Shown: in pieces, positions 6,328-25,215 of the stretch
Layout of the letters: each line of letters opens with the position of its first letter
Numbering within the stretch: position 1 is the stretch's first letter
NCBI RefSeq assembly: GCF_000025945.1
Contig: NC_006138.1
Span: forward strand, 2,700,001-2,732,000
Direction of reading: 5' to 3'
Length of the DNA stretch: 32,000 nt
Source: Desulfotalea psychrophila LSv54
GTDB lineage: Bacteria; Desulfobacterota; Desulfobulbia; Desulfobulbales; Desulfocapsaceae
The notes under the pieces: model-generated
Told to the model about the DNA's origin: nothing
The model's input: the letters and a program-made list of their open reading frames with translations, nothing else
The model's database searches: none
Position numbers and translations under genes: made by a program

Positions 6328-6340
6328 AGTCTGAAAAGTT

Positions 6341-8831: not shown

Positions 8832-8901
8832 TAAGTACTCTCTCTAAGACGTTGCAGTCGGAAGTTTTTTTTCGAATCTGACCAGTCTGCGCCATGAGAT
8901 T

Positions 8902-10908
8902 TTATTTTCCTCCACCACGCAATATTTCTAACATTTTTTTTTGATGCTCTTTTATGTCAGTAAAAATCCATTCCTGCCCCGCTACACGAGTGTTTTGATT
9001 GTCTTGGCATTTCTGCATCATAATCATAAACTTGATTGACGCCACACTGACCTGCTTAATCTTTCCGGAAGTATCTAAGTAATGATCAAGCTTTGTTTTC
9101 GGACTCCAATTTGAACCTGAACTATTCGCCTCGCTACCAATCATAGCGTAGTTACCCAGGCAGTTTATTTGCTCTTTATCCAGCGCACCATTTTCTCCAT
9201 TAGCATTGGCTTGCGGGTAGTAATGCTCTAAACTCCTGCGCGTTCTCGAAAAATAAAACTGTTGGAATACTTTCAGTCCAAAATCACTACATCCAAGTGA
9301 GGTAAAAAAATCAGTTCGGTTTGGATCGTCTTCTTTTATACTTTCGCCGCGAAGCTCATTAGCATATTTCTCCCACAACTTATAGTCAAGATAGTTGAAA
9401 ACGAACAACGGAATACCCTTTGATTTTTCCGTGCCATCTCCATAGATTGCAGTAAAATCAAAATTGTCATTGAGTGGCTTAAAATTGAGTACATTGTTAC
9501 AGAGGACGGTGTTATCGAAGCTACCAGGATTCGGCGTATTAATTTGGTTAAGGTTCTCAGCCATCAAATACACGTCTTTGAAGTATTTGTCCGCCAACTC
9601 CGACACGCAATCATAATACTTGCTAATATCCCTGTCGTCAGAACTGAACAGATACAGCAAGCAATAGAAGAGATAATTTTTCCTTTGTCTTGCCGTAAAT
9701 GACACCTCGAACATCGAAAGCAACTGCACCAATTTATGTTGATGATCGCTTTCGCCGTCACGATTTTTCAGATAACCTTTTTTGCCGTCTTGTTGCCAAT
9801 ACTGCAGCTTCCAAGGGTTGTTCTCAATAGTGTCATCTTCATTTGAATGATGCACGAGATAATTGTCTAGCAGATATTTTGCCCTCAGCAAGTTGAAGCC
9901 GAACTTCTTTACAAATTCCTCCTCAACATGCACGTCATCAAATTCATGGATCAATTCTTTATCGTCGAGGATAAAATTCTTAGGTTTTAAACCGCTCTCT
10001 TCAATACGGGTGAGTTTTAACACAATTAGCAAGAAGTTTGAAAAGTCCATAATCGGCTGAAAGGTATCGATTTTGTACTTTTCTTCCTGCTGTTTATTTC
10101 CGCCCTTGTAATTGATAAAGTCTCTGATTTTCATTGTATTTTCGTTTTCATCCACATTCGGTAAAGCATCAAAACTTGAAACCTTAAAATCACAGAGATG
10201 CTTCCCAAAAATTGAGACTTCAGGATATTTTTGTTGTATGTAGACATTCATCTCGCTGCAAGATTCCCAAAGGCGATTAAACTTTGCCTTGTCCGCGTTA
10301 TTTAGTTTTTCAATAAGGCGTGCTTTAATAATTTCGTGCTTTTCCAGTTGCTCGCCTCTGGAATTCATGACTTCAAAGTAGTGATTTAAGTCTATATCTT
10401 TCGGCACTTGGTAGTGAATCAGGTGAACACTGTCCAGAAAATAGGTTTTGAATCCATCTTGGCATTCTTTCAGAACTATTTCATTAATGGTGTCCTTAGC
10501 ATATTTAAAGCCGTTTACGATTCCATAATCTTTTTCGTCAATCTCAAAACAAGGAATGCTTTGAATGGTGTCGTTCGATTTTTTGCGCGCCCGATACGTC
10601 AGTTTGTTTTGGAGGTAAACTCCCAATGCACCAAGTACGAGATTAATTGTGGTTAGCCTCTGTTGGCCGTCAATCACTTCATAGACTTGGTCTCCTTTGT
10701 GGAAGGACACCAATGTCCCAATAAAATAAGTCTGCTTTGGGGCGGTGGTGTATGCATCGTAGACATCCTGAATCAGCGCGGAAATCTCATCTTTTTCCCA
10801 GGCATAGTTTCTCTGGTAAATCGGCACTTCATAAGTAGCTTTATCGCCATTATAGATTTCGGCGATGGACAGTTCTTTGAGCGGCAGAGTTTTAGTTTTC
10901 ATTTTCAC
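8902..10908 (-). CDS. GmrSD-family type IV restriction-like protein (N-terminal DUF262/ParB-like NTPase plus C-terminal DUF1524 HNH-like nuclease)
   Basis: 668 aa. DUF262 motifs: YEVPIYQRNYAWE, IDGQQRLTT, YFEVMNSRGEQLEKHEIIKA. DUF1524 motifs: SLEHYYPQ ... NCLGNYAMIGSEANSSGSNWSPKTK. The track start is GTG at 10908. An alternative ATG at 10902 follows a GGAAGG RBS. Confidence 0.85.
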   Translation of the reverse strand: MKMKTKTLPLKELSIAEIYNGDKATYEVPIYQRNYAWEKDEISALIQDVYDAYTTAPKQTYFIGTLVSFHKGDQVYEVIDGQQRLTTINLVLGALGVYLQNKLTYRARKKSNDTIQSIPCFEIDEKDYGIVNGFKYAKDTINEIVLKECQDGFKTYFLDSVHLIHYQVPKDIDLNHYFEVMNSRGEQLEKHEIIKARLIEKLNNADKAKFNRLWESCSEMNVYIQQKYPEVSIFGKHLCDFKVSSFDALPNVDENENTMKIRDFINYKGGNKQQEEKYKIDTFQPIMDFSNFLLIVLKLTRIEESGLKPKNFILDDKELIHEFDDVHVEEEFVKKFGFNLLRAKYLLDNYLVHHSNEDDTIENNPWKLQYWQQDGKKGYLKNRDGESDHQHKLVQLLSMFEVSFTARQRKNYLFYCLLYLFSSDDRDISKYYDCVSELADKYFKDVYLMAENLNQINTPNPGSFDNTVLCNNVLNFKPLNDNFDFTAIYGDGTEKSKGIPLFVFNYLDYKLWEKYANELRGESIKEDDPNRTDFFTSLGCSDFGLKVFQQFYFSRTRRSLEHYYPQANANGENGALDKEQINCLGNYAMIGSEANSSGSNWSPKTKLDHYLDTSGKIKQVSVASIKFMIMMQKCQDNQNTRVAGQEWIFTDIKEHQKKMLEILRGGGK

Positions 10909-12352
10909 CTTCCACGAATTTGTTTGTTTTGAAATAGTGGAGATAGCTTTGATAAATGCCGTCCTTATTCTGCTTATCCATATTATCTTTTTTCGCCTTT
11001 ATGCAGCCAATCGGCAACGGATTCACCCTGTCGGAAAGTGTACTTAAAAGCGAAACCGGTGAATCTGCTTCGGTGATAATTTTGTATAGGTTGAAAGAGT
11101 TCTTAACTTTGTTGCCAATAATATAGTTTTGCGCAGACAGCCAACCGACATTATAATACTGTGCCCTAAGCGAATAAGCCCAAACAAAGGCAAAAACCAC
11201 AAATTGGTTTAACATTTCCAAGTCCATTTTTGCAGGTCGTTCGGGACAAAATCTATCAACATAGAGCAAAATAGTGGTGTCGAACAGCAAGCGTGTGATT
11301 CGGTTACCAACACCATTTTTGTATATTCTCAGGTCAAGTGTTTTTATAATGTCGTTATCATTGATAAAATAGCCTTCATACTTGTCGTTGTTCTGAATGT
11401 CTTTAAGAATTTCAAAGTAGTGTTTTGCATAGTCAAAAAACGGCTTGCCCGCGACAATTGGTGTGTCCAACTGAAACGGTTTAAGATTCCGTATGCCCGA
11501 AACAAAAGGCATTGCGGACTGATTGACCGTATCGGCATAAGCAAATGCCCCTTTGTAGAATTGAGCGTAAGGGAAGTTGTCCTGCCGGGTGATGCCCTTG
11601 AATTGATATATATTATGCTCTGTAAGTCCCCAAGCTTTGTTGCCTTTTATCCATTCTTTCACACGATAGAGATAATCGCTGAACAGTGCCGAGAGTTCTT
11701 TTTGATTTAAGTCCTCCCAACCTTTTACAACCTTCTCGGTTTCTGCTACATCCAAATCGTTCATCTCGCGAAGATGATAAGCCTTAAGCAAATCATGGGG
11801 GTAAAGCTTTTTTCCACGAGCATTTTGCGAATCAAAGAACTGGAAGGCGTCGGATATGTTTTCTGTAATGATAACGATAAGTTCGCAATTATTTTTGATG
11901 TAATCCAGCAATTCCTTGCTATCCTTGTCGTCAATGATATTATTTGTACGTCTTTCCAGTGTGCGGAAGTTATTGGCAATATTACGCGTATTATGTGGAT
12001 TATTTGCAAGAGGCTGCTCTAAAAAACTTATTGAATCAGCACCAAGAGCTTTAAGTAGCAACGTAAAGGTTATAGTTCGCTGTTGCCCATCGACAATGTT
12101 ATATATTGATTCTTCCTCTTGATGGAGGATGAGTGTCCCTACTCGGTAGGTTTCTTTATTTTCATTTTTTGCATCAATAATGTCATCCAGTAGTTGAATT
12201 GCATTTTTTGCTGTCCATTTATAAGGCCGCTGATAATTTGGTATCACCAAGTTAATGTCAGTAATGGTATTGCCGTCTTTATCTTGCGTGATTTTATCGT
12301 GCAACAATAAGTCACCGATTTTGGTTATTGCGAGTTTTAAGCAAGTGGACAA
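10892..12352 (-). CDS. DUF262 (GmrS-like, ParB-like NTPase) protein lacking a nuclease domain
   Basis: 486 aa. Motifs: VIPNYQRPYKWT, VDGQQRTITFTLLL, FFDSQNARGKKLYPHDLLKAY. No HNH/DUF1524 motif in the C-terminal half. TTG start after an AGGAGA RBS. Its 3' end overlaps the next gene by 11-17 nt. Confidence 0.8.
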   Translation of the reverse strand: MSTCLKLAITKIGDLLLHDKITQDKDGNTITDINLVIPNYQRPYKWTAKNAIQLLDDIIDAKNENKETYRVGTLILHQEEESIYNIVDGQQRTITFTLLLKALGADSISFLEQPLANNPHNTRNIANNFRTLERRTNNIIDDKDSKELLDYIKNNCELIVIITENISDAFQFFDSQNARGKKLYPHDLLKAYHLREMNDLDVAETEKVVKGWEDLNQKELSALFSDYLYRVKEWIKGNKAWGLTEHNIYQFKGITRQDNFPYAQFYKGAFAYADTVNQSAMPFVSGIRNLKPFQLDTPIVAGKPFFDYAKHYFEILKDIQNNDKYEGYFINDNDIIKTLDLRIYKNGVGNRITRLLFDTTILLYVDRFCPERPAKMDLEMLNQFVVFAFVWAYSLRAQYYNVGWLSAQNYIIGNKVKNSFNLYKIITEADSPVSLLSTLSDRVNPLPIGCIKAKKDNMDKQNKDGIYQSYLHYFKTNKFVEGENEN

Positions 12353-13429
12353 ATTATATTCTCCTATTAGAAATATTATTTACCACCGCCTGAACGGCGG
12401 TATATTTTATTCTCGCGTGTTACTTCTTTCAATATTTCTTCGGCTGCAACTATCATTTCAACGCATTGCGCCAATTGCAGTCAACTATATACATGCCGAA
12501 AAATTTCACACATAACGGTTGGATCATGTTGCCAAATTGTTGCTTAGTAAAACTCTCTCTCTATATGTTGGGTCCCTGATGATTTCCCAGGCATCCGTAG
12601 CAAAAGGTTGTTACGAGCATATACATGGACAGAGGATTGCATACTATCTCCACCTACAAAAACAACCCTAGCAGCCGACATCTGTCCTACACTAATTTCA
12701 TATTAAGGGCAAGTAAGAAGCCTTAGGTGATATGGACAGAGAGTTGAGCACCGGAAAAATTTGCGATAAAGGAGTTTGACCTGTTTGAGCTAGCCATTTA
12801 AACTCCCGCAAATTTTGAGGAGCACAGGGGAGGCGACCGGAGTGGCGGGGCCAAGCACCTTCGTCTCTTTTGAGGAAAAGAGATGATGACTGGATAATGA
12901 CCGAGTAAGTTTTTTTATCCGAACCCTTAAGACGTGTATTGGTTAACTACTTAATTTTAGATAAAAAAATAACAATTCCAAGAGCCCCCTTACTAAACAT
13001 TGATATCTACACAAGCTCTGCAATACCCGTATGAATGGGGGTTGAGGGAAAATATAGAAACTGGTGCAGCCTTGAAAGAGCTCTTGCCCTTGGCAAGGGG
13101 GCTCTGGGGATCATCAGCGGGGCCATGGGGAGAGTTGGTGTAAGCAAAAAAGCCCTGCGTTAAATGATGCTTGGCTTATTTGCCGAGCTTTTTAACAAAC
13201 CCCGGACCCCCCTTACCAAGGGGAGAAGTCTCCACAGTTCATGCAGACTCTCTCATTTTATGATTAAGCGCCAAGAAACATCGGTGAAACTCTTTGATTT
13301 ACTGGCTTCTGGCAAGATGTGTAGATACTAATACTTATCAAAGAGAGGGGTTGCCCCTGCTCATTTCGACCTTTTTCCTGAGGGAGAGGCCCATGAAGAG
13401 ATAAGAGCCAAGGTACTCAAGACGATGAG

Positions 13430-14557
13430 TTAAGAGCTGTTAGAGTTTTTTCGAGCCTGATAGCGGGGAGAATCGCCCCACTCATCCCAGCCAACACTCT
13501 CTCCTATCTGGTCAATACCGCTGACAAGTGCAAGCATGCTCTCATCACAAATCTCATCCTGACCAGGCTTATTTTCATAGAGCTGATAATTTGATTTGCA
13601 CTCAGGCAGGGTGATATTGGGCATAATAACATTTGCCCCGGCCAGAAGTCCCCGTTCACGTCCATCGGGGGCGAGGGCTTGAAGGGCGGTGGTGGCAGCA
13701 ATATTAATATTGGGCAGGAGAATACGGGCAAGGGCTATCATCTTTAGACCTAAATCCATCGATCGCTCAGGATCAGCTATAAAGTCAGGGGCCATCCCCT
13801 GAAGCGGCGCCTCGGCGTGGGGCAGGTAGGGGCCCATCCCGATCATATCCACATCAAGATCACGCAGGGCGAGAAGATCAGTCACCAGATTATCAAGACT
13901 TTGAAAGGGGAGATTAATCATCACCCCACTTCCCACCTGAAATTGGGCCGCACGCAGATCGGAGAGGGCGGTGAAACGACGAGAGTAATGATGGTCCGCC
14001 GGATGCAGGCGAGAATAGAGAGCTGGGGTAAAGCTCTCCATACGGAGCAGATAACGGTGGGCGCCTGCAGCAAACCACCGACGGTAGGTGGCAAGACTTT
14101 GCTCACCCAGGGAGAGGGTGATGCCAAGCCGTCCCTCACTTCGCTCCTTGATCCCAACAATAAGTCTGGTGATCCACTCGGTAAAGGCGGGAGATTGCTG
14201 CTCCCCTGCCTGAATCACCATTGAGCCAAAACGGAGACGAATCGCCTCATCGGCCGCAGAGAACACCTGCTCATCGCTCATCAGATAGCGTTGCACCGAT
14301 CTATTGGAGTGGCGGATGCCACAGTAGTAGCAATCTTTAGCGCAGACATTACTCAGCTCGACCAGACCACGCAGTCGAACACGCTTACCAACATTATCAA
14401 CCTTAATCTCGTAGGCAAGGCGGAAGAGTTGAGCAATATCGGCTCTCGTATCTAAGGAGAGAAGGGTTAAGAGATCACTGCGCTCAAGATTTTCCCTGGC
14501 AATAATCTTTGCAAAAACTCTCTCCCCTTGTTCAGTTCCATATTCCATACTTTTCAC
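13430..14557 (-). CDS. hydE: [FeFe]-hydrogenase maturase HydE (radical SAM)
   Basis: 375 aa. It has the radical-SAM CAKDCYYCGI (CX3CX2C) motif and is biotin-synthase-like. It sits last in the hydA-F-G-E operon. The GTG start overlaps the hydG stop by 1 nt; an ATG at codon 4 is an alternative start. Confidence 0.85.
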   Translation of the reverse strand: MKSMEYGTEQGERVFAKIIARENLERSDLLTLLSLDTRADIAQLFRLAYEIKVDNVGKRVRLRGLVELSNVCAKDCYYCGIRHSNRSVQRYLMSDEQVFSAADEAIRLRFGSMVIQAGEQQSPAFTEWITRLIVGIKERSEGRLGITLSLGEQSLATYRRWFAAGAHRYLLRMESFTPALYSRLHPADHHYSRRFTALSDLRAAQFQVGSGVMINLPFQSLDNLVTDLLALRDLDVDMIGMGPYLPHAEAPLQGMAPDFIADPERSMDLGLKMIALARILLPNINIAATTALQALAPDGRERGLLAGANVIMPNITLPECKSNYQLYENKPGQDEICDESMLALVSGIDQIGESVGWDEWGDSPRYQARKNSNSS

Positions 14558-15993
14558 TAAAAAAAGAGATCCCGAGCGCCGGCATATATTTTCTGCAGAC
14601 GCTGTTCCACTCGCTCCCGCATGGCCTGATCTGCCATCTCAGCAAGCTGCTTTTCCACCAACTCAAGCCCTATTTTTTTAGTTGCAGGCAGGGCATAATC
14701 CTCCAGATACTCCGTAAAGGTAAGCAGAGCATTGGGTTGGCAAAAACGCTTCACAAAACCGGGAACAGCAAACTCCATAAAGTGCTCACCAGTGCGACCA
14801 AGACGGTAACATCCGGTGCAAAATGAAGGGATATAGTTGGCCCGGCAGAGTTCGGCAATCACCTCATCAAGGGTGCGAGTGTCGCCAAGCTCAAATTGCG
14901 ATTTGTCCTCTGCCTCATCCTCGCCTGCATAGGAGCCAATGCCAATACTTGAACCGGCATCCATCTGGGAAACACCAAAACGCATCACCTCATTGCGCAT
15001 CTCAACCGATTCCCGAGCTGTAAGAATAAGCCCGGTATAGGGAACAGCGAGACGAAGTACGGCAACAAGATGCTTAAAATCTGCATCGGAGACCCCGGAA
15101 GGAGGGGCATCGGCAAACGCTGAACCTTGAGCAGGTTCAATCCGGGGAAAGGAGATAGTGTGTGGGCCGACTCCAAAACGCTCTTCAAGATGAATGGTGT
15201 GATGAAGTAAACCCATCACCTCAAAGCGCCAGTCATAAAGTCCCATCAGGGCGCCGATTCCCACATCATCAATCCCCGCCTCCATGGCCCGATCCAGGGC
15301 ATGGAGTCGCCACAAATAGTTTGATTTTGGTCCGGCAAGATGAACAGATTCATAGGTCTCTTGGTGGTAGGTCTCTTGAAAAACCTGATAGGTCCCTATT
15401 CCTGCCTCTTTGACCCTGGCAAATCCTGCTAGATCAAGGGGGGCTGCATTGATATTAATCCGGCGAATCTCCCCCCTACCCTTTTTCACCCGATAGACCT
15501 GCTCTACTGTCTTGGCGATAAACTCAGCATCATATTGAGGATGCTCGCCATAGACCATAATGACTCGCTTATGACCGTGGTCAATGAGGGCTTCCACCTC
15601 ATCCTGCAAACCCTGCTCCGTGAGGGTTGTGCGCTGACAGTTGCTGTTTTCACTACGAAAGCCACAGTAACTGCAGTTATTGATACATCTATTGCCGACA
15701 TAGAGCGGAGCAAAGAGAACAATACGGTTGCCATAAACCGCCTGTTTGAGCTGTTCGGCACCGCGGAAAATATCTTGTAAAAGCTCAGGGTCACGAACAT
15801 TAAGCAGGGTCGCAGTCTCTCGGGGCAAGAGGCGTTCCTTGCCCAGGGATTTTGCAATGATCGCATGAATCATTGCCGCATCGGCATCCACGGTTTCCCG
15901 CAGGTCGCTGGCAATTGCCTCTTCGGGAATAAAGGAGCTCAACCCCGTGGTATCAACCGTGACTGGGCCTAAGAGAGAAGATTGCACCGTCAC
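14557..15993 (-). CDS. hydG: [FeFe]-hydrogenase maturase HydG (radical SAM tyrosine lyase)
   Basis: 478 aa. It has CINNCSYCGF (CX3CX2C) and a C-terminal CTGC-x22-C motif (FCTGCYRLGRTGEHFMEFAVPGFVKRFC). It overlaps hydF by 4 nt. Confidence 0.9.
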   Translation of the reverse strand: MTVQSSLLGPVTVDTTGLSSFIPEEAIASDLRETVDADAAMIHAIIAKSLGKERLLPRETATLLNVRDPELLQDIFRGAEQLKQAVYGNRIVLFAPLYVGNRCINNCSYCGFRSENSNCQRTTLTEQGLQDEVEALIDHGHKRVIMVYGEHPQYDAEFIAKTVEQVYRVKKGRGEIRRININAAPLDLAGFARVKEAGIGTYQVFQETYHQETYESVHLAGPKSNYLWRLHALDRAMEAGIDDVGIGALMGLYDWRFEVMGLLHHTIHLEERFGVGPHTISFPRIEPAQGSAFADAPPSGVSDADFKHLVAVLRLAVPYTGLILTARESVEMRNEVMRFGVSQMDAGSSIGIGSYAGEDEAEDKSQFELGDTRTLDEVIAELCRANYIPSFCTGCYRLGRTGEHFMEFAVPGFVKRFCQPNALLTFTEYLEDYALPATKKIGLELVEKQLAEMADQAMRERVEQRLQKIYAGARDLFF

Positions 15994-17237
15994 ATCCTTT
16001 TATGCGAGTTGATGGTGACAAGCTCAGAAAATGGCGCAGTAACCCGCGGAAGCACCCCTTTCATCAATGAAATTGCCATACCATAATTGGTAATAGGAAT
16101 ACCTAGTTCTCCCGCTTTTTCCAGCCGGGATAGGGTCTCCTGTCGATTAAGCATACAACTGCCACAGTGGATAATAAGTTTATAATCCTCAAGATTCTCT
16201 GGGAAATCTCGCCCTGAGAAAACATCTATTTCCACTTTTTTGCCACTATATTTTCTCAGCCATCTGGGAATCTTTACCCGACCAATATCATCTTCGGTGG
16301 CGTGGTGGGTGCAAGCTTCGGCAATAAGGACTTTATCACCATCAATAAGCTGATCAATAGCCTCGGCCCCGGCCAGCATCTGGGCCATATCACCCTTTAA
16401 GCGCGAGAAGAGAATAGAGAAAGTGGTGCAGGCAAGCTCCTCAGGCGTCTGAGCAACCATCAAATCCACCACCTGGGAATCACAAACCACCAGATCGGGC
16501 AGGCGAGAAAACTCCTGCAAGCAATCAGCATAGCGATCCTCTTTTACCACTGTAATCATCGCCCCATGATCAAGGGCATCGCGGATTGCCTGAACCTGGG
16601 GCAGGATGAGGCGATGCTTGGGCGCTTGCAGATCAATGGGGACAATCATCACCACCCGGGAAAATTGACCAAGCAGATCACCCAAAAGTTTTGGCTCGGT
16701 TATGGGCAGAAGATTGTTCGTCGCAATTGTAGCTGTAAATTCGGTAAGAAAAGCGTCCCGGCCTCCCCGATCAAGGGCATTGCAGGTGAGGAGGTGAAGC
16801 CTGCGAGTTGCCATCTCAGCCCTAAATTGCGGGGAGAGTGGGGAGATATCATAATGGCTGGAAACAACAAGCAGCGGCTTCTTTTTCCCAAGGGCTGTCT
16901 GATAGATAAACTCCTCTATCTCGCCCCACTGATTGGGCTGGATAAGCAGAATCAGCAGATCAACCCGAGCAAAAACAGCACGGGTTTTCTCGGTGCGAAG
17001 ATGGCCAAGGGCACTCTCATCATCAAGGCCTGCTGTATCATGGAGAACTACGGGGCCCAGGGGCAACAGCTCCATACTCTTCTCCACCACATCGGTGGTG
17101 GTGCCGGGCTGGGACGAGGCGATCGCAACATCTTGATCCACCAAAAAATTTAGAAATGTCGATTTGCCCACATTGGTTCGGCCAAAGATACCGAGATGGA
17201 GCCGCATCGATTTTGGTACTGTTTGCATAAAAACCAC
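15990..17237 (-). CDS. hydF: [FeFe]-hydrogenase maturation GTPase HydF
   Basis: 415 aa. P-loop GRTNVGKST, G3 motif DTAG, and C-terminal cluster ligands CTHH ... HCGSC. The start is ambiguous: GTG at 17237 or ATG at 17228. Confidence 0.9.
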   Translation of the reverse strand: MVFMQTVPKSMRLHLGIFGRTNVGKSTFLNFLVDQDVAIASSQPGTTTDVVEKSMELLPLGPVVLHDTAGLDDESALGHLRTEKTRAVFARVDLLILLIQPNQWGEIEEFIYQTALGKKKPLLVVSSHYDISPLSPQFRAEMATRRLHLLTCNALDRGGRDAFLTEFTATIATNNLLPITEPKLLGDLLGQFSRVVMIVPIDLQAPKHRLILPQVQAIRDALDHGAMITVVKEDRYADCLQEFSRLPDLVVCDSQVVDLMVAQTPEELACTTFSILFSRLKGDMAQMLAGAEAIDQLIDGDKVLIAEACTHHATEDDIGRVKIPRWLRKYSGKKVEIDVFSGRDFPENLEDYKLIIHCGSCMLNRQETLSRLEKAGELGIPITNYGMAISLMKGVLPRVTAPFSELVTINSHKRM

Positions 17238-17281
17238 AAAAGAAGAGTACTCCGCCAGAGCGAACTCTGGCGGAGAGAAGA

Positions 17282-18733
17282 TTACTTGTCGAGAATGCTG
17301 GGGCTATTTTTGGCAAAATCCTGGCACTTTTTGGTCGCCTTCTTCAAGGAGATCAGATTAGCAGGTCCGGCAACACAGCCACCTTCACAGCCCATGACTT
17401 CGATAAAGTTGCCGGGAGCCTCTCTCTTTTGGCTATAGCGCTTGAGTTCGCGCATGCTCATCTTGTCAAGACCATTGATACTTATCGGCTTTACCTCAGT
17501 TCGATCACCAATCATTGCGGTGATGCCAGCGGTAACACCACCAGTCACCGGAAAGCTACGACCCTCCCGCATAGCAGGAAACATATATTCGCCATCTTCG
17601 CACTGCTCAAAGTCAATTTCAAGGGCGGCAAAAAGGCTACCAAGCTCCTGGAAGGTCAGCACATAATCAACGCCCTCATCCCGAGCACCCTCTTTACGCT
17701 TGGCCACACAGGGACCAATAAAAACAGTCTTATAGTTTGAATCTACGGCCTTGACCTTGGCTGCGGTGTAGTGCATTGGCGTTCTGGTATCCGAAACAAA
17801 TTCGCCAAGATCAGTGAGGTGCTTCCTCACCAGCATGGTATAAGCAGGACAGCAGGATGTGGTCATAAATGGTGCACCTTCCTCCATCCGCTCCACAAAC
17901 TCCTCCGCCTCTTTATGAGCGGTGATATCAGCCCCACTTGAGACTTCCGCCGCCTGAGCAAAGCCTATTTTTTTTAGGGCCGTCACAAGCTTTGCCATGC
18001 TGGCATCAAACTCTCCGGCAATGGCAGGAGCAACCATTGCAACCAACTTCTCCCCTGACCTCATCGCCTTGAGCACATCAAGCATTTGTGACTTTTCAAG
18101 TACAGCCGCAAAGGGACATTGGGCCATACACTTTCCACAAAAGATACAGAGATCATAATCAATAACCTGACGGCCCGAAACATCCTTTGAAATTGCACCG
18201 ATGGGGCAAGCTACTTCACAGGGAATGGGAATTTGAACAATTGCGTGGTAGGGACAGACCTTCAGACATTTTCCACAATTGATGCAGAGATTCGAATCAA
18301 TATGCGATTTTCCCTGAACCATGGTGATAGCATCTTTAGGGCAGCTCTGAATACAGGCTTGGGCAAGACATCCCTGACAGGCATTGGTAACCTCATAATG
18401 GGTACGAACACAGGCATTACACGCCTCATCAATAAAGGTGAGGGTGGTGGAAGTTACTGAATCACGCTTAAGCGCCATCTCTGCATATTCAGCCAGAGAC
18501 TTCAGCTCGTCATCATCTTGTTCAATAGCAAATCCCAAAAAAGCCATACAGCGATAGCGAATAATTGCCCGCTCGCGCCAGATACAGCAACGGGAGCTTG
18601 CCTTTTGGTCTCTAGGCCGCATCTGAATGGGGATGGCATTAACATTTCCAGCAAAATCATCGCTAAAAAAAGCCTTGGTGATAAGATTAAGAACTTCATG
18701 ATTGATAGTGCTGTGATAACTTTTGAAATACAT
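17282..18733 (-). CDS. hydA: [FeFe]-hydrogenase catalytic subunit (monomeric, ferredoxin-domain-containing; possibly group B)
   Basis: 483 aa. H-cluster motifs: TTSCCPAY (L1), GPCVAKRKE (L2), EVMGCEGGCVAGP (L3). It has two CxxCxxCxxxCP ferredoxin motifs (CINCGKCLKVCP, CIFCGKCMAQCP) and extra N-terminal Cys clusters. A GGTGAG RBS lies 8 nt before the ATG. Confidence 0.85.
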   Translation of the reverse strand: MYFKSYHSTINHEVLNLITKAFFSDDFAGNVNAIPIQMRPRDQKASSRCCIWRERAIIRYRCMAFLGFAIEQDDDELKSLAEYAEMALKRDSVTSTTLTFIDEACNACVRTHYEVTNACQGCLAQACIQSCPKDAITMVQGKSHIDSNLCINCGKCLKVCPYHAIVQIPIPCEVACPIGAISKDVSGRQVIDYDLCIFCGKCMAQCPFAAVLEKSQMLDVLKAMRSGEKLVAMVAPAIAGEFDASMAKLVTALKKIGFAQAAEVSSGADITAHKEAEEFVERMEEGAPFMTTSCCPAYTMLVRKHLTDLGEFVSDTRTPMHYTAAKVKAVDSNYKTVFIGPCVAKRKEGARDEGVDYVLTFQELGSLFAALEIDFEQCEDGEYMFPAMREGRSFPVTGGVTAGITAMIGDRTEVKPISINGLDKMSMRELKRYSQKREAPGNFIEVMGCEGGCVAGPANLISLKKATKKCQDFAKNSPSILDK

Positions 18734-20039
18734 AGATGTAACTCACCAAAGAGAAAATTAACAGGGAAGAGAAGTGCAAGCCCCCCACAAATGACACAGA
18801 AACAACATTCCTCCCAGCCTCTTCTGCACCGCTGACAAGAGCTTAGAGCCTATCAGAAAATAACATGCACATCTTGCATCTCAGCTTCGGGCCATCTTCG
18901 ACCGCTTCTCAATCGCAAAATCCTCGATGTAGCCCTGCTACGTCTGCAGTTTTGCTCAATCGGCGCGGCCAAATCTAACCCAAGCCTGAGCGAAATTTTG
19001 GCCATCTTATTTTGTAACAGACCCTTAGCCCACGAAACATTCCGCGAAATTTTTAGATAGAGGAAAGTTTACTTGTAAAATATTCAGCAAACGAAAACAA
19101 TGTTTATTTACCACCCCAAAACCCTTATTTATGCTAGGTATGCGCAATTTCTTTATTATCAAAAACTTAATTTGTTCCAGTAAAAAACAGTTTGTTGCAA
19201 AACGAGACAACAGCACACCTTTCCTTCGATCACACTTCACCTATTTACCAACACCAAATTCTCATTAACTCCCATATCTCCATTCTCTTTTTCAGCAGAA
19301 AATGATAGTTACCCGTCTCCTTATCAACTCAATCAAAAGGAAAATAATTTTAAAATATTATGCATTTATTGGCGGATTACTTCTTGCTGGAGCAAGCAGC
19401 GCCCTCGCAGCCCCCATTTGCCAAAATAGAAAAACAGCTTGAAACAGATCACCCAAGCGTTGAACTCACCCGTCTTATCTCCGACAAAGGCGAGAAAAAC
19501 GAGATCATGGCCTCTACCAAGAGCTTCTGGACCAGCTTCCAACCGAAGATGTTAAGATGAAAGCAACCCAACTCATCAAACTTCTCCGGGGGAAGGCGGA
19601 ATAAAGGCCAGACCAGGGGGAAGCATCTCAGCCGACAGGTAGCCCCCACGGGCAGATATTTGTGAATCTCATTAATCATTTCTGACCTGGGCTAGAGCAT
19701 AAAAGCCAATGCCTTGATCGTTAGCATATCTCTGGCAAGTTGCACGCTATCAGAAACGGCAACGGCAAGAGCAAGGACGGTTAACCACGGCTTAGAGGTC
19801 ACAGAGATTTTTTAGTTCTCTACAGGAAAGATATAGTGCAGCTCCCCCTCTGAGAAGTGGAGGTGACTTGAGGGCAACTTCATCCCCCTAAACTTCTGTT
19901 TAAGTAGACCTCTATGGTGTTGGGTCCCTGCACAGCTTCAAGCAGATAAGTTCTGCACTGCGCTACTCGCCTCTACACAGAAGGCACGGGTTTTCTGCGC
20001 AGAAGGCTGTGATCATGGGTAGCTAACGATGCTTAATCA

Positions 20040-20068
20040 TTGACCATAACAATAAAATTGTGTATTTA
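20040..20068 (+). promoter_or_regulatory. Candidate sigma70-type promoter (TTGACC-17 nt-TATTTA with a TG-extended -10)
   Basis: Read from the sequence about 130 nt upstream of the 20198 ATG, at the very left edge of the AT-rich cassette. This is a prediction only. Confidence 0.3.
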
Positions 20069-20197
20069 AGAAAACTGACGTTTAAATTGTAAAATACAAT
20101 ATATATTGGGCCTAGCCTTGAACTCTTACCAAACAAAACGTAAACAATTTCAATCTATTAGCAGACAGTTACTTATCTTTTATGTGGAGTTGCAAAC

Positions 20198-22804
20198 ATG
20201 ACAAAAGAACTACTTAAGATAGATCTCGATGATATAAAAAATAGATATGTAAACGATGGAGACTTAATTTGCTGTAGCGTCGATACCGCAAATTACCCTC
20301 ACATTCAACCTATAGTTTTCTTAAAAGACGATGTTTTCTACAATATATCTAATGAAGACTCACGAACAATATACAACTCTAGGTTTAAAGAACATATCAG
20401 TGACACTGAAGAAATATTCAGTCCACTCTATGAAAGATTTTTACCAAATGAATTATTTTTATTAAATAGATTCGCTGACAATAAAAGTAAATGGTCTGCG
20501 GCAGATCCTTACTTTTTTGCTTTTGGAAACGACACATTACCAATCACAAACCATCAAGCCTTAGAAGTTTTTGATGGATTTTTTTCCTTAGAAAATGATT
20601 TCTTCGTCCCCAAGCATAATGAATTACTTGAATTACTCAAAAATAAAATTGACAAGGGCATAACAAACCGTTTCTATGTCAAAACACAAGACACTGTTTT
20701 TGGCCCCTTTGAAGCAAAAAAGATAGAAACGAATAGTGTTAAATTGGCAGCAGTTACCATAAATAATGACACCATATATGAATGGAACTACTCTACAATA
20801 AAAAATGATTCTATTTTCGAATTTTCTGAACCTGAAAGAAACAATAAAATTATTCGCTCGATAACCTCAGGATGGCTTAAAAAAGAAGACAGCAAAAAAA
20901 GTATTATTTTCAAACCTGACAGTGAAATTTTAAAATGGGTAAGTCAACGCACTAAAAAATCTTGTAGCCTCACAAAATCTGATTATAAAAAATTTGAAGA
21001 AATCACAAAAGCATTTCTATCATACGAAGTTAATTCAGATGAAAAATTCATCTACAAGAGAGCAATAAAGCTTATCGAAAAAAGCAAGGAAAACAAGAAA
21101 ATTGTTGATGGTTTCATAGATTTTTTACCAGGATCTTCCATAATTACGGAAAAGCTAGAAGCACTTGAAAAAGAAGCAGAGGAAACACTCTATAAAAACA
21201 AAATAATAAAAAAAGAAAACAAGGAAATTGACGAAGAAATCAAAAACAATACACAAATAAAGAACGATTTACTTAACAAAATAGAAGAACTCAAGAAAAA
21301 AACGGAATTTGAACAAATAGAAGTTACCAAGAGAGAAAATGAGGAGCTCACATTACAAATCAAAAAAGATGAAACGCTAAGAAAAGAATCTGAAAAAAGA
21401 GAAAAATACTCGGAACTCTATAAAATAAATGCAGAAATCAGAAAAAAAGAAAACGCGATTGAAGATCTCAAGGAAAAAGAGAGGGAGTTGAGTGCGGTTA
21501 TAACAGACTTATCTGACCAATTTATCAATAAACAAAAAGAAGCTCACAGTAGTCTACGGGAATTAATAAAATCGAAAACTCATTTTGATTTTATCAGTGG
21601 GAGGAATTTTGAAGATGAAAATAAAACTGTGGAAGATTTTAGTCCGATTATTATAGATTCTTTTTATAAAAATGTTTTAGAAGACACAGGTTTTGTTTCG
21701 CATGAAAAATTTTTACTAGATAAAATTGCCACCTCCTTAAAATATTATGGCAGGAATTATGACAACAACTTTATTGCTAATGTGTTGATATCTCTATATC
21801 AAAACATGGGCACTATCTTTGCTGGACTACCAGGAACTGGAAAAACTTCTTTAGCCAGAATTATTTCAAAAATTTTAACAAAAGATAACAGGAAAGTTGT
21901 TGAAATACCAGTTGCACGTGGTTGGAGTTCTCAAAAAGACTTTATAGGGTTTTACAATCCTCTTTCCAAAAAATTCATTCCGACAAATGAAAAAATGTAC
22001 TCTTTATTAAGGTTAAGCGATGAAGAGGTCTCCTTAAAGACATATAAAGAAAATAATATAGGAATTGTCATCCTTGACGAAGCCAATCTGAGCCCAATGG
22101 AACATTATTGGTCTAGTTTTTATAACTTAACAGATAGTAGAGTCGATGATGAAAACATGCTAGAAATAAACATTGGCACTGAAGCAGAATTAAAATTTGC
22201 GAACAACATCAGATTTATCAGCACAATTAACATCGACCAAACAACAGAAGAACTTTCTCCCAGAATTTTAGACAGATGCAACGTAATAAGAATTCCAACA
22301 GACAATATTTCCTACACACATTCTGCCAATAAGTATAACAGCCAAACTGACATAGAGATTAACTTTTCAGATATAATAAAGTTGTTTAACTTAAAAGACT
22401 TTAACAATGGATTAACACCTGAAGATCTAGAAAACGAATCTTACAAAAAAATATACCTAGAATACTGTAAAACAAAAGATGCTCTGAAAAAATTAAAAAT
22501 AACAGTTAGCCCCAGAATTGACAATGCATTCACGGATTACTTCCTGACAGCACTTAGATTTATGCCTGAATACAAAGCGCTAGATTATTTCATTGCCCAA
22601 CGATTACTAACAAAAATAGATGGGCAGGGAGAAGCATACAAAAAAAACCTAGCAATACTCCTTGAGAAGTTGAAAGAAATATTCATAAACGACCATTCCA
22701 CTAAATCATTCAAAAATGATTCCATAGAAATACTAGAAGAAATTATCGAGACTGGCTCAGAAAGCGAGTTTTACAACAACTACAATTACTTTTTGATAAG
22801 CTAA
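20198..22804 (+). CDS. McrB-type AAA+ NTPase fused to a long coiled coil and an unassigned N-terminal domain
   Basis: 868 aa. Walker A is GLPGTGKTS (nt 21824-21850, K549). Walker B is IVILDEANLSP (D627/E628). QKDFIGFYNP resembles the McrB YEDFIxGYxP segment. STINIDQT has N678-I-D680 where McrB has MNTADRS. ILDRCNVIRI resembles the DxALxRRF segment. Residues from about 318 to 470 are heptad-like and Glu/Lys/Ile-rich (EKLEALEKEAEE...KEKERELSAV). Residues 1-310 carry no motif I recognise. Confidence 0.8.
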   Translation: MTKELLKIDLDDIKNRYVNDGDLICCSVDTANYPHIQPIVFLKDDVFYNISNEDSRTIYNSRFKEHISDTEEIFSPLYERFLPNELFLLNRFADNKSKWSAADPYFFAFGNDTLPITNHQALEVFDGFFSLENDFFVPKHNELLELLKNKIDKGITNRFYVKTQDTVFGPFEAKKIETNSVKLAAVTINNDTIYEWNYSTIKNDSIFEFSEPERNNKIIRSITSGWLKKEDSKKSIIFKPDSEILKWVSQRTKKSCSLTKSDYKKFEEITKAFLSYEVNSDEKFIYKRAIKLIEKSKENKKIVDGFIDFLPGSSIITEKLEALEKEAEETLYKNKIIKKENKEIDEEIKNNTQIKNDLLNKIEELKKKTEFEQIEVTKRENEELTLQIKKDETLRKESEKREKYSELYKINAEIRKKENAIEDLKEKERELSAVITDLSDQFINKQKEAHSSLRELIKSKTHFDFISGRNFEDENKTVEDFSPIIIDSFYKNVLEDTGFVSHEKFLLDKIATSLKYYGRNYDNNFIANVLISLYQNMGTIFAGLPGTGKTSLARIISKILTKDNRKVVEIPVARGWSSQKDFIGFYNPLSKKFIPTNEKMYSLLRLSDEEVSLKTYKENNIGIVILDEANLSPMEHYWSSFYNLTDSRVDDENMLEINIGTEAELKFANNIRFISTINIDQTTEELSPRILDRCNVIRIPTDNISYTHSANKYNSQTDIEINFSDIIKLFNLKDFNNGLTPEDLENESYKKIYLEYCKTKDALKKLKITVSPRIDNAFTDYFLTALRFMPEYKALDYFIAQRLLTKIDGQGEAYKKNLAILLEKLKEIFINDHSTKSFKNDSIEILEEIIETGSESEFYNNYNYFLIS

Positions 22805-22805
22805 A

Positions 22806-24491
22806 ATGTATTCCATTGAAATAACGTCTTTCAACAACAACAACGTTGTTCAAAAAGCGAACAACACTTTCGATATCAAGGAAACATTTAACTACAATAT
22901 TATTCTGCGAAGAGAGGGGATAGTACAAAATGGTTTTCTTCTTATTGATGGAGTTTTCAATCAATTTGGAGAACAAAGAACTATTGCGCTCGGAAAAGAA
23001 GAAAAGACACCTTTCATTAACTGCTTTGGTCTCTTTACTTGCTCATACGATGGACAATTTATTGCAACTTTCGACGTTTCAACTACAAAACTTAGTGGTG
23101 TAGAAGCTAAAAATATTCTAGAATACGTCTACCATAACTCCCAAGAGTTATTCACCAGCAACCTGAACAAAACAAGAAATTTCACCTCTGGTGGTAGTAC
23201 AAAAAACAACCTATCTCTTTTTAATTATATTGGTGTAATTAAAGAGTTGCTTGCATGCTTAAAATCTTTTTTGCCAATTTTGAAAAACAAAGCGCTTTAC
23301 AAAATACGGAAAGAAATAACAATAGAAAGATATGAAGAAAATTGTGCAACTAGCAAGAGCTTAGAGTGGATACTTGCAAACCTTGATAAGCATATTTACG
23401 GCAACAGTTTAAAAGGTTTACCAGGAGCTTTTGAAATAGATGGTACATTTGCCTTACCTAACCAAATAGAAATAGAAAAAAACATAAAAGATTTTTCCAT
23501 ATATGAAAATAAGATAATTATTGGAGCAATAAAAACATTAGAGTTACGTATTCGCGATACAATCTACCTAGTAAAATCTAATATAGAAGACAACGATATA
23601 ATCGATGAAAAATTTGCTAGTTTTAATACGATAAAGAAAATATTGCTATCGAGCGAGCTCAACAATTTAGCAGAAGCGAAGCACACTCTATATGAATTAA
23701 AAAACAACTATTTTTCGTTTTTTAATACTGTACCATCCATACAAGAAAAACCAAAATTAACACATAACTTCAGAAGAAAAAAACATTATAGAAATATTTA
23801 TGAAAAAGTAAGATTATTATATGATTCATCTTTGCTCCCGACAGGAATACATCTTGTTCTAGGGATTAAAAACATTGATATATTATATGAATATTACGTT
23901 TTTTATAAAATAATAGATTTATTCAAACAACTCTATGGAGAACCGACAAAAGTCGAAACAGAAGAGAAAGAACAAATAATAAAATATGTAGAATTCATAA
24001 ATGAACAAGGAATGACCTTCAGAGTTCACTATCAATTAAGAATAAACAAAGAAAAAATAACGCCATCATACCCTTGGCTCAAGCTATTTGTAAACTCAAA
24101 CACCGCCAGCCATTATACCCCAGATATTGTCGTAGAATTCGAGTTTAACTCTGTCTTTAATTACGCAATTTTTGATGCAAAATATAGTACAAAGAAATGG
24201 ATAGAGGGTACTTCCGTAAATATAGGAAACACAACTCAAACCGTAATAAACAAATATTATTTATCTGTTTCCCATAGAGGCGAGCCATACAAAAAAATAG
24301 ATTACTTATTTCTTGTTTACCCTAGTAGAATATCAGCAAAATTTTTCACAAAAGAGACAGATTATTATCCAATAATTGCAGCAATACCCTCTGTTCCAAA
24401 CAACAACAGTCATCTACAAGATATTATTGAAACAATCGCTAGAAACTGGGCGAATAACACTCAAGCGCATCACCCTAAGCCAAGCATTTAA
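22806..24491 (+). CDS. McrC-like protein (DUF2357-type N-terminal region plus C-terminal PD-(D/E)xK nuclease)
   Basis: 561 aa. The ATG lies 1 nt after the stop of the upstream gene (TAA-A-ATG). The nuclease motif is YTPDIVVEFEF-x11-IFDAKYS (D440, E445, D457-A-K459), the PD...DAK arrangement typical of McrC. Confidence 0.7.
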   Translation: MYSIEITSFNNNNVVQKANNTFDIKETFNYNIILRREGIVQNGFLLIDGVFNQFGEQRTIALGKEEKTPFINCFGLFTCSYDGQFIATFDVSTTKLSGVEAKNILEYVYHNSQELFTSNLNKTRNFTSGGSTKNNLSLFNYIGVIKELLACLKSFLPILKNKALYKIRKEITIERYEENCATSKSLEWILANLDKHIYGNSLKGLPGAFEIDGTFALPNQIEIEKNIKDFSIYENKIIIGAIKTLELRIRDTIYLVKSNIEDNDIIDEKFASFNTIKKILLSSELNNLAEAKHTLYELKNNYFSFFNTVPSIQEKPKLTHNFRRKKHYRNIYEKVRLLYDSSLLPTGIHLVLGIKNIDILYEYYVFYKIIDLFKQLYGEPTKVETEEKEQIIKYVEFINEQGMTFRVHYQLRINKEKITPSYPWLKLFVNSNTASHYTPDIVVEFEFNSVFNYAIFDAKYSTKKWIEGTSVNIGNTTQTVINKYYLSVSHRGEPYKKIDYLFLVYPSRISAKFFTKETDYYPIIAAIPSVPNNNSHLQDIIETIARNWANNTQAHHPKPSI

Positions 24492-24651
24492 TATAAAAAC
24501 AAGGATACTCCATTCTCTTATCCTCAGAAGCTATCAATCCCCTTTCGGCCCCCACAAACCAAGGCAAGGCCCGCTGACAAAGTTCGTTTCTTTTCAACCC
24601 TACCCATGTTACCATCCGGCAAAAGTAGGTAAACCATCCACAGGGAGAACG

Positions 24652-25215
24652 ATGCGAGATTTCACAGCAGATCTAAAAATAGGGAAGAGAAATATGGCCC
24701 AAGTGGCCTCTCTCATTACGCCAGAGCTCCGGCTCAAAGAGGCATCCATAGCCGAAAGACAGAGCAAAAGCTCTGAGAGTCAACGAGACAAGCTTATGGA
24801 GATCTATGCCCTGGCAGGTGAACTTACGGCAGAGATCTCCCCTCTCACCCCCTGCAGAGCCGGATGCAGCAACTGCTGTCATATCAATATTTCAATCTCA
24901 CCACTTGAAGCAGGAATTATCGCCGATGAAATCGGTATAGACCCAGGCACAGGGGACATTACCCTGACAGACGATTTTTACGGTTCCAAATGTCCCCTCC
25001 TCGTCAATGAGAAATGCTCTGTCTACCACGTACGTCCCTACTTCTGTCGCCGCTTCATCTCTCTTATGCCCAGTGAGTACTGGTGTGATCACCGAAGAAT
25101 ATTAAACCATGACTTCCCCCTTCTGCAATTTTCCGAAATAAACAGGGCATACTACCAGCTGATTAATGGTGGTGGGCTGAGGGATATCAGGCGGTGGTTT
25201 CAGCCCCGGGACTAG
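24652..25215 (+). CDS. YkgJ/UPF0153-family Cys-cluster (putative Zn/Fe-S binding) protein
   Basis: CRAGCSNCC (CxxCxxCC) plus a downstream KCPLL...KCSVYHVRPYFCRRF. The long track ORF begins at 24376 inside the AT-rich McrC-like gene. I chose ATG 24652 (GGGAGA RBS), where GC content rises; ATG 24694 is an alternative. Confidence 0.6.
   Translation: MRDFTADLKIGKRNMAQVASLITPELRLKEASIAERQSKSSESQRDKLMEIYALAGELTAEISPLTPCRAGCSNCCHINISISPLEAGIIADEIGIDPGTGDITLTDDFYGSKCPLLVNEKCSVYHVRPYFCRRFISLMPSEYWCDHRRILNHDFPLLQFSEINRAYYQLINGGGLRDIRRWFQPRD

Follow-up and report, generated by a model that had tools for sequence, protein, structure and literature searches.

A two-gene N-x-D McrBC-family cassette of Desulfotalea psychrophila LSv54, probably a defense system with a Type I-C-like CoCoNuT layout

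The stretch of DNA described here, hereafter the window, comprises 32,000 nucleotides (nt) of the Desulfotalea psychrophila LSv54 chromosome (contig NC_006138.1, positions 2,700,001 to 2,732,000), and all coordinates refer to it. Two adjacent genes, DP2381 (gene 1) and DP2382 (gene 2), form a compact cassette that probably encodes a defense system of the McrBC family (Table 1). In the existing annotation DP2381 is an ‘ATP-binding protein’, assigned to COG1401 in the source record, and DP2382 is a ‘hypothetical protein’ that carries the UniRef name DUF2357. Both open reading frames (ORFs) are full length and keep every invariant catalytic residue. Their junction, GCTAA-A-ATGTAT, consists of the gene 1 stop codon (TAA, 22802-22804), a single A at 22805 and the ATG of gene 2 at 22806. 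The guanine plus cytosine (GC) content is 0.29-0.33 over 20001-24500, against about 0.48-0.54 on either side in the composition profile, and the AT-rich tract stops at the gene 2 stop codon. An AT-rich two-gene cassette with a TAA-A-ATG junction had been described in an earlier reading of the sequence letters (the original prediction), and these values bear it out. The islet is bordered by a HydE/HydG/HydF/[FeFe]-hydrogenase cluster on one side and by housekeeping genes on the other, whose products were identified with Pfam as a CxxCxxCC protein, UppP, a protein with a Macro domain and fumarase. No tRNA, integrase, Rfam match or meaningful flanking repeat was found at the cassette to mark the mechanism of insertion, and promoter and terminator scans at the cassette returned signals no better than chance.

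The motor of gene 1 displays the motifs of an McrB-type AAA+ NTPase in the order and with the spacing of McrB. Measured from start to start, Walker A and Walker B are separated by 82 amino acids (aa) and Walker B and the N-x-D signature by 52 aa, in agreement with the distances of about 78 and about 50 aa that had been claimed. Residues G543, G546, T547, G548, K549, D627, E628, N630, T676, N678, D680, T682, T683, D692 and R693 are invariant across seven gene 1 relatives, and the pattern N-x-D-[EQ]-T-T recurs in 153 of 155 homologues; the motifs are therefore beyond chance. The residue following N-x-D is Gln in the closest subfamily and Glu in the other homologues. The D692-R693 pair is comparable in position to the RRRF stretch of Escherichia coli McrB, which by analogy makes it a candidate arginine finger, and profile matches extend to the C-terminus in most gene 1 homologues.

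Searches with the single gene 1 sequence gave weak, generic AAA+ matches (AAA_5, 3e-7; AAA, 2e-4; EccA, 4e-5 and 0.019). A search of the PDB with the family profile (hmmsearch) revealed that the best solved relative is E. coli McrB (PDB codes 6hz4, 6ut6 and 7vsr; E value of 6.6e-6 over 150 residues). The McrB alignment spans Walker A, Walker B and the sensor Asn, while Cdc48, Lon, TRIP13 and others match just 30-40 residues around the P-loop. Alignment of the NTPase module with E. coli McrB by hhalign gave a probability of 96.3% and an E value of 1.6e-9 over 150 columns, pairing N678 with the Asn of the MNTAD motif and D680 with its Ala, one residue before the E. coli Asp. The canonical N-x-x-D GTPase signature is thus absent from gene 1 by motif inspection and by hhalign, and the proposed shortening of N-x-x-D to N-I-D is confirmed by the position of D680, one residue nearer the sensor Asn.

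An exhaustive search with the NTPase module returned 11,496 representatives, 6,544 of them below an E value of 1e-30, and the motor of gene 1 is therefore a member of a large family; most representatives are 750-1000 aa long and carry the NTPase at the C-terminal end. Extreme rarity of the family, first read from the 7, 3 and 5 relatives returned by a word-indexed search, was rejected as partly a matter of search insensitivity. Published Type I-A CnuB sequences match the NTPase family profile with E values of up to ~1e-45 (here and below, the published Type I-A sequences are those in the accessible part of the eLife supplement). The match of the PADLOC profile PDC-M26A to gene 1 (E value of 2.4e-26) covers the coiled coil together with the first half of the NTPase. 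Two distant relatives, P0005 and P0006, reside in operons that also contain TerY-P genes, a UPF1-like helicase and additional large proteins; this arrangement has been published for Type II/III CoCoNuT (coiled-coil nuclease tandem) systems.

Upstream of the motor, residues 313-467 have a content of E, K, D, R and Q of 45-57% and a 3.5-residue hydrophobic periodicity with z values between 3.1 and 3.6 in three of the five sub-windows. This 155-residue stretch free of Pro and Gly corresponds to the heptad-like charged segment of roughly 150 aa that had been proposed here, and it also gave weak matches to the coiled-coil families JetC, LmuB, DivIC and HlyD. The ~310-aa N-terminal region has no sequence match in Pfam, NCBIfam or the PDB, in line with its earlier description as a domain lacking motifs, a description now qualified by weak YTH/PUA-like fold matches. 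A GPF motif ([FY]GPF) is kept in this region across a 22-member two-gene group, in which G169 and F171 are invariant. AlphaFold2 (AF2) models of this module and of gene 2 were built from alignments of five to six sequences. A Foldseek search with the model of gene 1 aa 1-335 returned a top list composed mostly of YTH domains, from YTHDF2, YTHDF1, Mmi1, MRB1 (PDB code 4u8t) and CPSF30 (PDB code 5zuu), together with the PUA-like entries 1vhy and 1nxz. These matches are a weak lead that agrees with a Type I-C reader, not a proof of one. Residues 1-120 are modeled as β-rich, and a CSD/OB-like fold is possible there.

In gene 2, residues E234, Y328, E362, P439, D440, D457 and K459 are invariant over 20 homologues and, because the catalytic residues are so conserved, the predicted PD-(D/E)xK site is complete. 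The PD...DAK motif recognized earlier is thus present and invariant (P439-D440 and D457-A458-K459), although it lies in the C-terminal quarter of the protein and not at its very end; the residue numbers K549, D627/E628 and D457/K459 proposed for mutation of the two proteins are all correct. Among six members of the gene 2 family, PDDEXK_7 was recognized in five and DUF2357, the N-terminal domain of McrC, in three. At a database size of 10^6, a 20-sequence gene 2 profile matches Type I-A CnuC proteins from Dorea (~7e-9) and Anoxybacillus (6e-4); the matched region starts at the YEN motif and reaches the first nuclease helix. The corresponding ENxY motif is also present in the Type I-A CnuC sequences, and the Dorea match begins there. 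No sequence match to the PDB was obtained with either the single gene 2 sequence or the 20-sequence profile. The AF2 model of gene 2 comprises a β-rich region (aa 5-92), a long helical middle and an α-β nuclease core, of which only the core is moderately confident, with a predicted local distance difference test score (pLDDT) of 64-79 and the element order α-β-β-β...β-β-α. Foldseek returned no significant match for this model; BamHI recurs weakly, with an E value of about 1. The modeled β-rich region at aa 1-92 may correspond to the Ig-like sandwich of CnuC proteins, which it matches in position and size. The C-terminal part of gene 2 contains no CxxC pair, and the protein has no coiled-coil/CSD insertion, the DUF2357-type and nuclease regions being directly linked.

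Table 1. Positions of the cassette, its genes and their predicted domains and motifs in the window.
Feature	Position	Strand	Basis and remarks
AT-rich islet, GC about 0.30	20030-24500	no strand	Composition and edge sequences; contains only the two-gene cassette and an upstream leader
Gene 1, DP2381 (CAG37110.1, WP_011189622.1)	20198-22804	+	ORF, 868 aa; CnuB-like coiled-coil McrB homolog of the N-x-D branch
Gene 1, β-rich sub-region, aa 1-120	20198-20557	+	AF2 pLDDT <40; five short strands predicted
Gene 1, best-defined part of the reader module, aa 121-250, with invariant G169-P170-F171	20558-20947	+	Candidate YTH/PUA-like fold; pLDDT 66-88 for aa 121-200
Gene 1, coiled-coil segment, aa 313-467	21134-21598	+	155 residues without Pro or Gly; heptad periodicity
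Gene 1, McrB-type AAA+ NTPase core, aa 500-700	21695-22297	+	hhalign and hmmsearch to McrB
Gene 1, Walker A GLPGTGKT, aa 543-550 (K549)	21824-21847	+	Invariant residues
Gene 1, Walker B ILDEAN, aa 625-630 (D627, E628 and N630 invariant)	22070-22087	+	Alignment
Gene 1, signature T-I-N-I-D-Q-T-T, aa 676-683 (INID 677-680; N678-x-D680)	22223-22246	+	Shortened form of McrB N-x-x-D
Gene 1, invariant D692-R693 (LDR 691-693)	22271-22276	+	Candidate arginine finger
Gene 1, C-terminal helical region, aa 701-868, with invariant R773 and G809	22298-22801	+	Family conservation
Gene 2, DP2382 (CAG37111.1)	22806-24491	+	ORF, 561 aa; CnuC-like McrC homolog
Gene 2, β-rich N-terminal region, aa 1-92	22806-23081	+	Five strands between aa 5 and 92 (DSSP on a low-confidence AF2 model)
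Gene 2, ‘YEN’ motif Y233-E234-N235 of the DUF2357-type region	23502-23510	+	E234 invariant, N235 nearly so
Gene 2, PD-(D/E)xK nuclease core, aa 357-484	23874-24257	+	Helix Y361-E362-Y363, strands, P439-D440, D457-A458-K459, helix K483-Y484

Loci of relatives were collected by scanning species-representative genomes, calling ORFs and running hidden Markov model (HMM) searches, which yielded more than 20 gene 2 homologs. A gene 2 homolog lies directly 3′ of the NTPase gene in about 27 loci, and in every locus with enough sequence; the junctions range between -56 and +6 nt, apart from a single one of +76 nt. No third gene is common to the pair across taxa in these about 27 loci, and no relatives were found by searching known plasmids and phages. 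Hosts include a Cloacimonadales metagenome-assembled genome (MAG), Desulfobacter curvatus, Marispirochaeta, Sphingobacterium, Arcicella, Dyadobacter, Bacteroidales, Collinsella, a Verrucomicrobiales MAG, Halomonas and Methylococcales. The window protein and about 20 relatives come from Desulfobacterota, Cloacimonadota, Spirochaetota, Bacteroidota, Actinomycetota, Verrucomicrobiota and Gammaproteobacteria. In a rough neighbor-joining (NJ) tree the D. psychrophila protein groups with 21 two-gene loci, inside an N-x-D ingroup that also contains the CoCoNuT references and from which E. coli McrB is separate. The references of this tree are Type I-A, context-inferred Type II/III and, as outgroup, E. 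coli McrB, with none of Type I-B/I-C, CoCoPALM or the methyltransferase-linked N-x-D systems; bootstrap support of the deep nodes is lost on re-rooting and is low elsewhere.

Several of these loci carry features of their own. One proteobacterial subgroup (Methylomagnum and uncultured proteobacteria; loci L018, at 9459-13569, L021, L028 and L031) has, on the same strand 3′ of the pair, a large ORF (>1,369 aa) whose C-terminal part matches SNF2-rel_dom (2.5e-67) and Helicase_C (5.5e-25). This SNF2-family helicase does not occur in the D. psychrophila window, and it may be a third component in that subgroup or an adjacent defense gene. In a Marispirochaeta sp. MAG (OY763414.1; L016, 5974-9914) a minus-strand transposase gene of the IS256/Mutator family (7758-8921; Transposase_mut, 2e-121) interrupts the gene 1 homolog, leaving parts of 586 aa and 314 aa, and the gene 2 homolog directly 3′ is intact. 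Split or truncated NTPase or nuclease genes were also observed in Desulfobacter curvatus DSM 3379 (L011, 1726-3400), Collinsella aerofaciens (L034, 7493-8389) and a Bacteroidetes MAG (L017, 1277-3681); the split ORFs suggest frameshifts or pseudogenes, or are possibly sequencing errors. Broken copies are common among defense genes. Three Christensenellaceae MAGs (L037-L039, about 5170-6861) encode proteins of 550-563 aa with a hydrophobic N-terminal half that resembles multiple membrane-spanning segments. Their matches to the NTPase profile are more distant (1e-23 to 1e-25), no gene 2 homolog is adjacent, and they fall outside the coiled-coil group in the rough NJ tree; they may represent a different, membrane-anchored McrB-like family.

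The N-x-D branch of McrB is defined by a one-residue deletion relative to N-x-x-D, the N-x-D motif being strictly conserved and the next residue usually, not invariably, Glu or Asp (Bell et al. 2024, eLife 13:RP94800, PMC11090510). Homologs of this branch are encoded beside an McrC homolog that has a DUF2357 N-terminal domain, with or without a PD-(D/E)xK domain (PMC11090510). Gene 1 displays the motif order and spacing of McrB-like AAA+ proteins and has McrB as its closest characterized AAA+ relative; its conserved N678-x-D680 and the adjacent McrC homolog are those of the N-x-D branch; and a 155-residue coiled coil is fused to the N-x-D NTPase, as in CoCoNuTs. Domain order, the family relationships of NTPase and nuclease, the invariance of the catalytic motifs, the tight operon coupling and the occurrence of the pair with no third partner are direct observations. 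Together, DP2381-DP2382 is probably an intact, horizontally acquired, two-gene N-x-D member of the McrBC family, CoCoNuT Type I-like and with a layout that best fits Type I-C, which would act in modification-dependent, Type IV-like defense. A CoCoNuT member or relative within the N-x-D branch had been anticipated, and the matches to Type I-A CnuB (~1e-45) and CnuC (~7e-9), with McrB as the best solved relative, sustain that assignment. The accompanying account of the literature on the N-x-D branch and CoCoNuTs was accurate (Bell et al. 2024, PMC11090510). Its label ‘non-canonical’ for the two-gene layout overstated the novelty: Type I-A and Type I-C are defined as CnuB+CnuC alone (PMC11090510). 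The statement that none of these systems is characterized biochemically still holds, with the addition that protection against RNA and DNA phages has been reported for a Type II CoCoNuT.

The following mechanism is extrapolated from the structures of E. coli and Thermococcus McrBC and from Bell et al. 2024 (PMC11090510). The NTPase domains would assemble into a hexameric ring, which the N-terminal part of gene 2 would enter, stimulating the hydrolysis of GTP (or ATP) through contacts with the signature Asp. Since the partner would act through this Asp and the motif is shortened, N-x-D would demand a co-adapted partner. The N-terminal reader is presumed to recognize modified foreign nucleic acid, possibly as a YTH/PUA-like binder of modified bases that follows a small β domain, and the coiled coil may space the reader and the motor or dimerize/oligomerize them. 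The PD-(D/E)xK site (E362, D440, D457, K459) would then cleave the target, most simply DNA because of the nuclease type and because no RNase is present.

A number of observations weigh against this interpretation. No CSD, YTH or EVE domain was recognized in 16 N-terminal modules by Pfam at permissive thresholds, nor in PDB sequence searches, even with a 10-sequence profile, and the N-terminal profile gave no match to the N-termini, which bear the CSD, of the Type I-A CnuB proteins in the accessible part of the supplement. The AF2 model of gene 1 aa 1-335 is poor (mean pLDDT of 52); its YTH/PUA-like Foldseek matches are not significant, with a best E value of 0.2 and a template-modeling (TM) score of about 0.3, and the many YTH matches are in part redundant, as several PDB entries represent one and the same protein. 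The model of gene 2 is likewise poor, with a mean pLDDT of 41 and values of about 30 in the N-terminal region. The PDDEXK_7 match of gene 2 itself (aa 360-463) has an E value of 8e-4, below the Pfam cutoff, the gene 2 family has no detectable similarity to E. coli McrC (hhalign probability of 0.15%), and PADLOC recognizes only gene 1, with gene 2 matching no model. Gln, and not Glu or Asp, follows N-x-D in the closest subfamily, a difference from Type I-C, and CAG37110.1 was not found among the rows listed in the accessible part of the published CoCoNuT table (eLife Supplementary file 3). Finally, the function of the cassette, like that of any Type I CoCoNuT or N-x-D McrB, is a prediction that leans on sequence and analogy.

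An unlikely but substantial alternative is that the pair belongs to a separate, unnamed N-x-D coiled-coil McrBC lineage distinct from the seven CoCoNuT subtypes that have been published (PMC11090510), with an ~300-aa [FY]GPF reader that is neither CSD nor YTH and an McrBC-like action. Such a lineage is consistent with the conservation of the N-terminal module, including the invariant G169 and F171, in the 22-member two-gene group; with the failure of sequence methods to recognize this module, which does not match the N-termini of Type I-A CnuB; with the position of the group apart from the Type I-A and Type II/III references in the rough NJ tree; with the Gln after N-x-D; and with the absence of the protein from the listed rows of the published table, in the part accessible. 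The same failure of recognition is, however, expected for Type I-C, where CSD and YTH domains of CnuB are undetectable by sequence and were identified by structure comparison (PMC11090510), and the sole structural signal points to YTH/PUA-like folds. Moreover, domain order and gene count equal those of Type I-C, the NJ tree lacks Type I-B/I-C references and usable deep support, and the table is represented here in part. On this unlikely reading, some 20 relatives would make up, together with the window protein, a two-gene lineage of their own outside the published subtypes, and the [FY]GPF module would be a new reader of nucleic acid or of modifications instead of a CSD-YTH tandem. If so, the complete PD-(D/E)xK site and the requirement for only two proteins would make the pair the simplest tractable model of the coupling between an N-x-D motor and a nuclease.

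It is also possible, although doubtful, that the same proteins target RNA, such as modified tRNA, rRNA, tmRNA or phage transcripts, to operate as an abortive-infection or dormancy switch rather than in DNA restriction. Bell et al. based their argument for RNA targeting by CoCoNuTs on the CSD and YTH-like domains that Type I CnuB contains (PMC11090510), the N-terminal model of gene 1 gives a weak YTH-like signal, and the seven-gene Type II CoCoNuT of Pseudomonas aeruginosa (‘Obs’) protects against PP7 and LeviOr01, which are RNA phages, as well as the DNA phage MPK7. That result, however, comes from a system with HEPN and helicase parts. The only nuclease of the D. psychrophila pair is a PD-(D/E)xK domain with a complete catalytic set, and no HEPN or other dedicated RNase is present in the cassette or its neighbors. 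Characterized McrC-type enzymes, such as that of E. coli McrBC, cut DNA, and modified DNA can be read by YTH-like domains in fusions with McrB, for instance in that of Thermococcus gammatolerans; both facts count against an RNA target.

That the cassette is a decaying relic devoid of present function is very improbable: relatives are broken by an IS256/Mutator insertion in Marispirochaeta and by gene splitting in loci L011, L017 and L034, but the D. psychrophila ORFs are full length, retain all catalytic residues and preserve the 1-nt junction. Least probable, to the point of being negligible, is that gene 1 encodes a non-McrB AAA+ ATPase (MoxR-, EccA- or Cdc48-like) beside an unrelated downstream gene, with no restriction system at all: single-sequence matches are indeed weak and generic (AAA_5, AAA, EccA), but the family profile puts McrB at the top and aligns it alone over Walker A, Walker B and sensor 1, a MoxR or EccA identity being rejected on this and on the hhalign result to McrB (96.3%), the McrB-specific sensor motif N-x-D-x-T-T is invariant, and the DUF2357/PD-(D/E)xK partner is always alongside.

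The surroundings of the cassette in the window are described here in their own right. Between the [FeFe]-hydrogenase gene and gene 1, about 1.46 kb (18734-20197) contain no convincing gene. The GC content of this region, 0.41-0.44, is between the flank and cassette values; its sole ORF, of 66 aa (19360-19560), has no Pfam match, and no tRNA or Rfam match was found in it. This stretch may serve as a leader/promoter region or may be left over from the insertion event. On the other side, the mechanically called start of the CxxCxxCC-domain ORF (24376-25215) is a TTG within the 3′ end of gene 2. The Pfam domain starts at residue 160 of this ORF, and an in-frame ATG at 24653 lies in GC-normal DNA past gene 2 (ATGCGAGAT...); the true start of the CxxCxxCC gene is therefore probably downstream of gene 2, and the 116-nt overlap with gene 2 is probably an artifact. 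Further away, two adjacent minus-strand genes are of the GmrSD type, one at 8902-10908 (GmrSD_N, 7e-34; GmrSD_C, 6e-6) and the other at 10892-12352 (GmrSD_N, 3e-29; DUF7834, 3e-58). Beside them, a 297-aa ORF has a weak methyltransferase-like match (UPF0020, below cutoff). This minus-strand locus (7605-12352) lies inside an AT-rich stretch from ~2000 to 13000 with a GC content of about 0.39 against about 0.5, and its domain content marks it as a putative second Type IV restriction-like locus. The GmrSD-type and McrBC-like loci, which together amount to two putative modification-dependent systems, are about 8 kb apart (12352 to 20198), with the hydrogenase maturation cluster between them.

The two-gene form, the N-x-D signature and the CoCoNuT class were all described in 2024, and the cassette is a new example of a recently named kind; it is useful, and leaves the comparative-genomics picture unchanged. 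Functional data on N-x-D McrB proteins and CoCoNuTs so far consist of the phage-protection phenotypes of one seven-gene Type II system only. The compactness of DP2381/DP2382 and the full catalytic set make the pair a convenient subject for studying nucleotide preference and partner stimulation with the shortened signature, the role of the coiled coil, and the choice between modified DNA and RNA as target. As regards annotation, DP2381 and DP2382 should become an McrBC-family (CoCoNuT Type I-like) defense pair.

E. coli K-12 McrBC (EcoKMcrBC) is the canonical GTP-dependent Type IV restriction enzyme. The D. psychrophila cassette resembles it in the order of the AAA+ motifs, in the operon of two genes with the NTPase preceding the nuclease and in the PD...(D/E)xK site of the partner. 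It differs in carrying N-x-D in place of N-x-x-D (MNTAD), an unrelated ~310-aa module and an ~155-aa coiled coil where E. coli McrB has a small DNA-binding domain, and a partner of the DUF2357/PDDEXK_7 type. The earlier designation of gene 2 as McrC-like is accordingly upheld in part: by sequence, its McrC relationship runs through DUF2357/PDDEXK_7 and CnuC, not through E. coli McrC. The profile searches and PADLOC run named as checks in the original prediction came out in the same sense, with gene 1 placed with McrB rather than MoxR, PDDEXK_7 and DUF2357 recovered in the gene 2 family, and a PADLOC call for gene 1 alone. The candidate system PDC-M26 of PADLOC shares its component A with gene 1, as described above, but the match starts at profile position 131 and residue 322, so that the N-terminal module is not shared; because gene 2 matches no model, the cassette is not called by PADLOC. 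A literature search on PDC-M26 found nothing relevant.

Among CoCoNuTs, Type II/III systems share with the cassette a homologous CnuB NTPase module, a coiled coil and an N-x-D-E-T-T motif. Their CnuB N-terminus consists of the coiled coil only, and their CnuC nuclease is often inactivated (PMC11090510). In contrast, the gene 2 active site is complete, their CnuC proteins gave no match to the gene 2 profile, and no genes for the CnuH UPF1-like helicase, HEPN/CnuE or TerY-P are found near the D. psychrophila cassette; with no helicase or effector genes nearby, Type II/III identity was ruled out. Type I-A, to the extent of its accessible sequences, is closer: it is also a two-gene system, the NTPase core and the partner match at E values of about 1e-45 and about 7e-9, respectively, and the motif N-x-D-x-T-T...LSP+xLDR is identical. 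However, the helical insert of Type I-A is absent here: Walker B and N-x-D are 52 aa apart (50-65 aa in each of the 153 homologs scored), compared with about 95 aa in Dorea CnuB. Gene 2 is only 561 aa long and lacks the coiled-coil/CSD insertion and the C-terminal Cys-rich zinc ribbon, and the N-terminal modules are unrelated by sequence. Type I-A identity was ruled out on the 52-aa spacing and on the missing insertion and zinc ribbon. Type I-B was also ruled out: its coiled coil is on a separate protein (PMC11090510), and that of D. psychrophila is fused to gene 1.

Type I-C combines a CnuB of CSD-YTH-CoCo-McrB layout with a CnuC of IG-McrC_N-PD-DxK layout (PMC11090510). The subtype call made here, that the layout best fits Type I-C, is a probable one made on architecture, the AlphaFold models being poor and the labeled CoCoNuT sequences compared being those of Type I-A; CSD, YTH and IG folds are not demonstrated in the D. 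psychrophila proteins, whose models are of low confidence and whose fold matches are non-significant. There are two genes only, and gene 1 follows the order N-terminal module, coiled coil, N-x-D NTPase, with no insert between Walker B and N-x-D. The reader is undetected by sequence and its weak YTH-type fold matches include 4u8t and 5zuu, the entries that define the YTH-like domain of Type I-C/I-B CnuB (PMC11090510). Gene 2, in turn, has a modeled β-rich N-terminus in the place where Type I-B and Type I-C CnuC have their IG domain (aa 1-103 and 1-123, respectively; PMC11090510), followed by a DUF2357-type region and an intact PD-DxK site.

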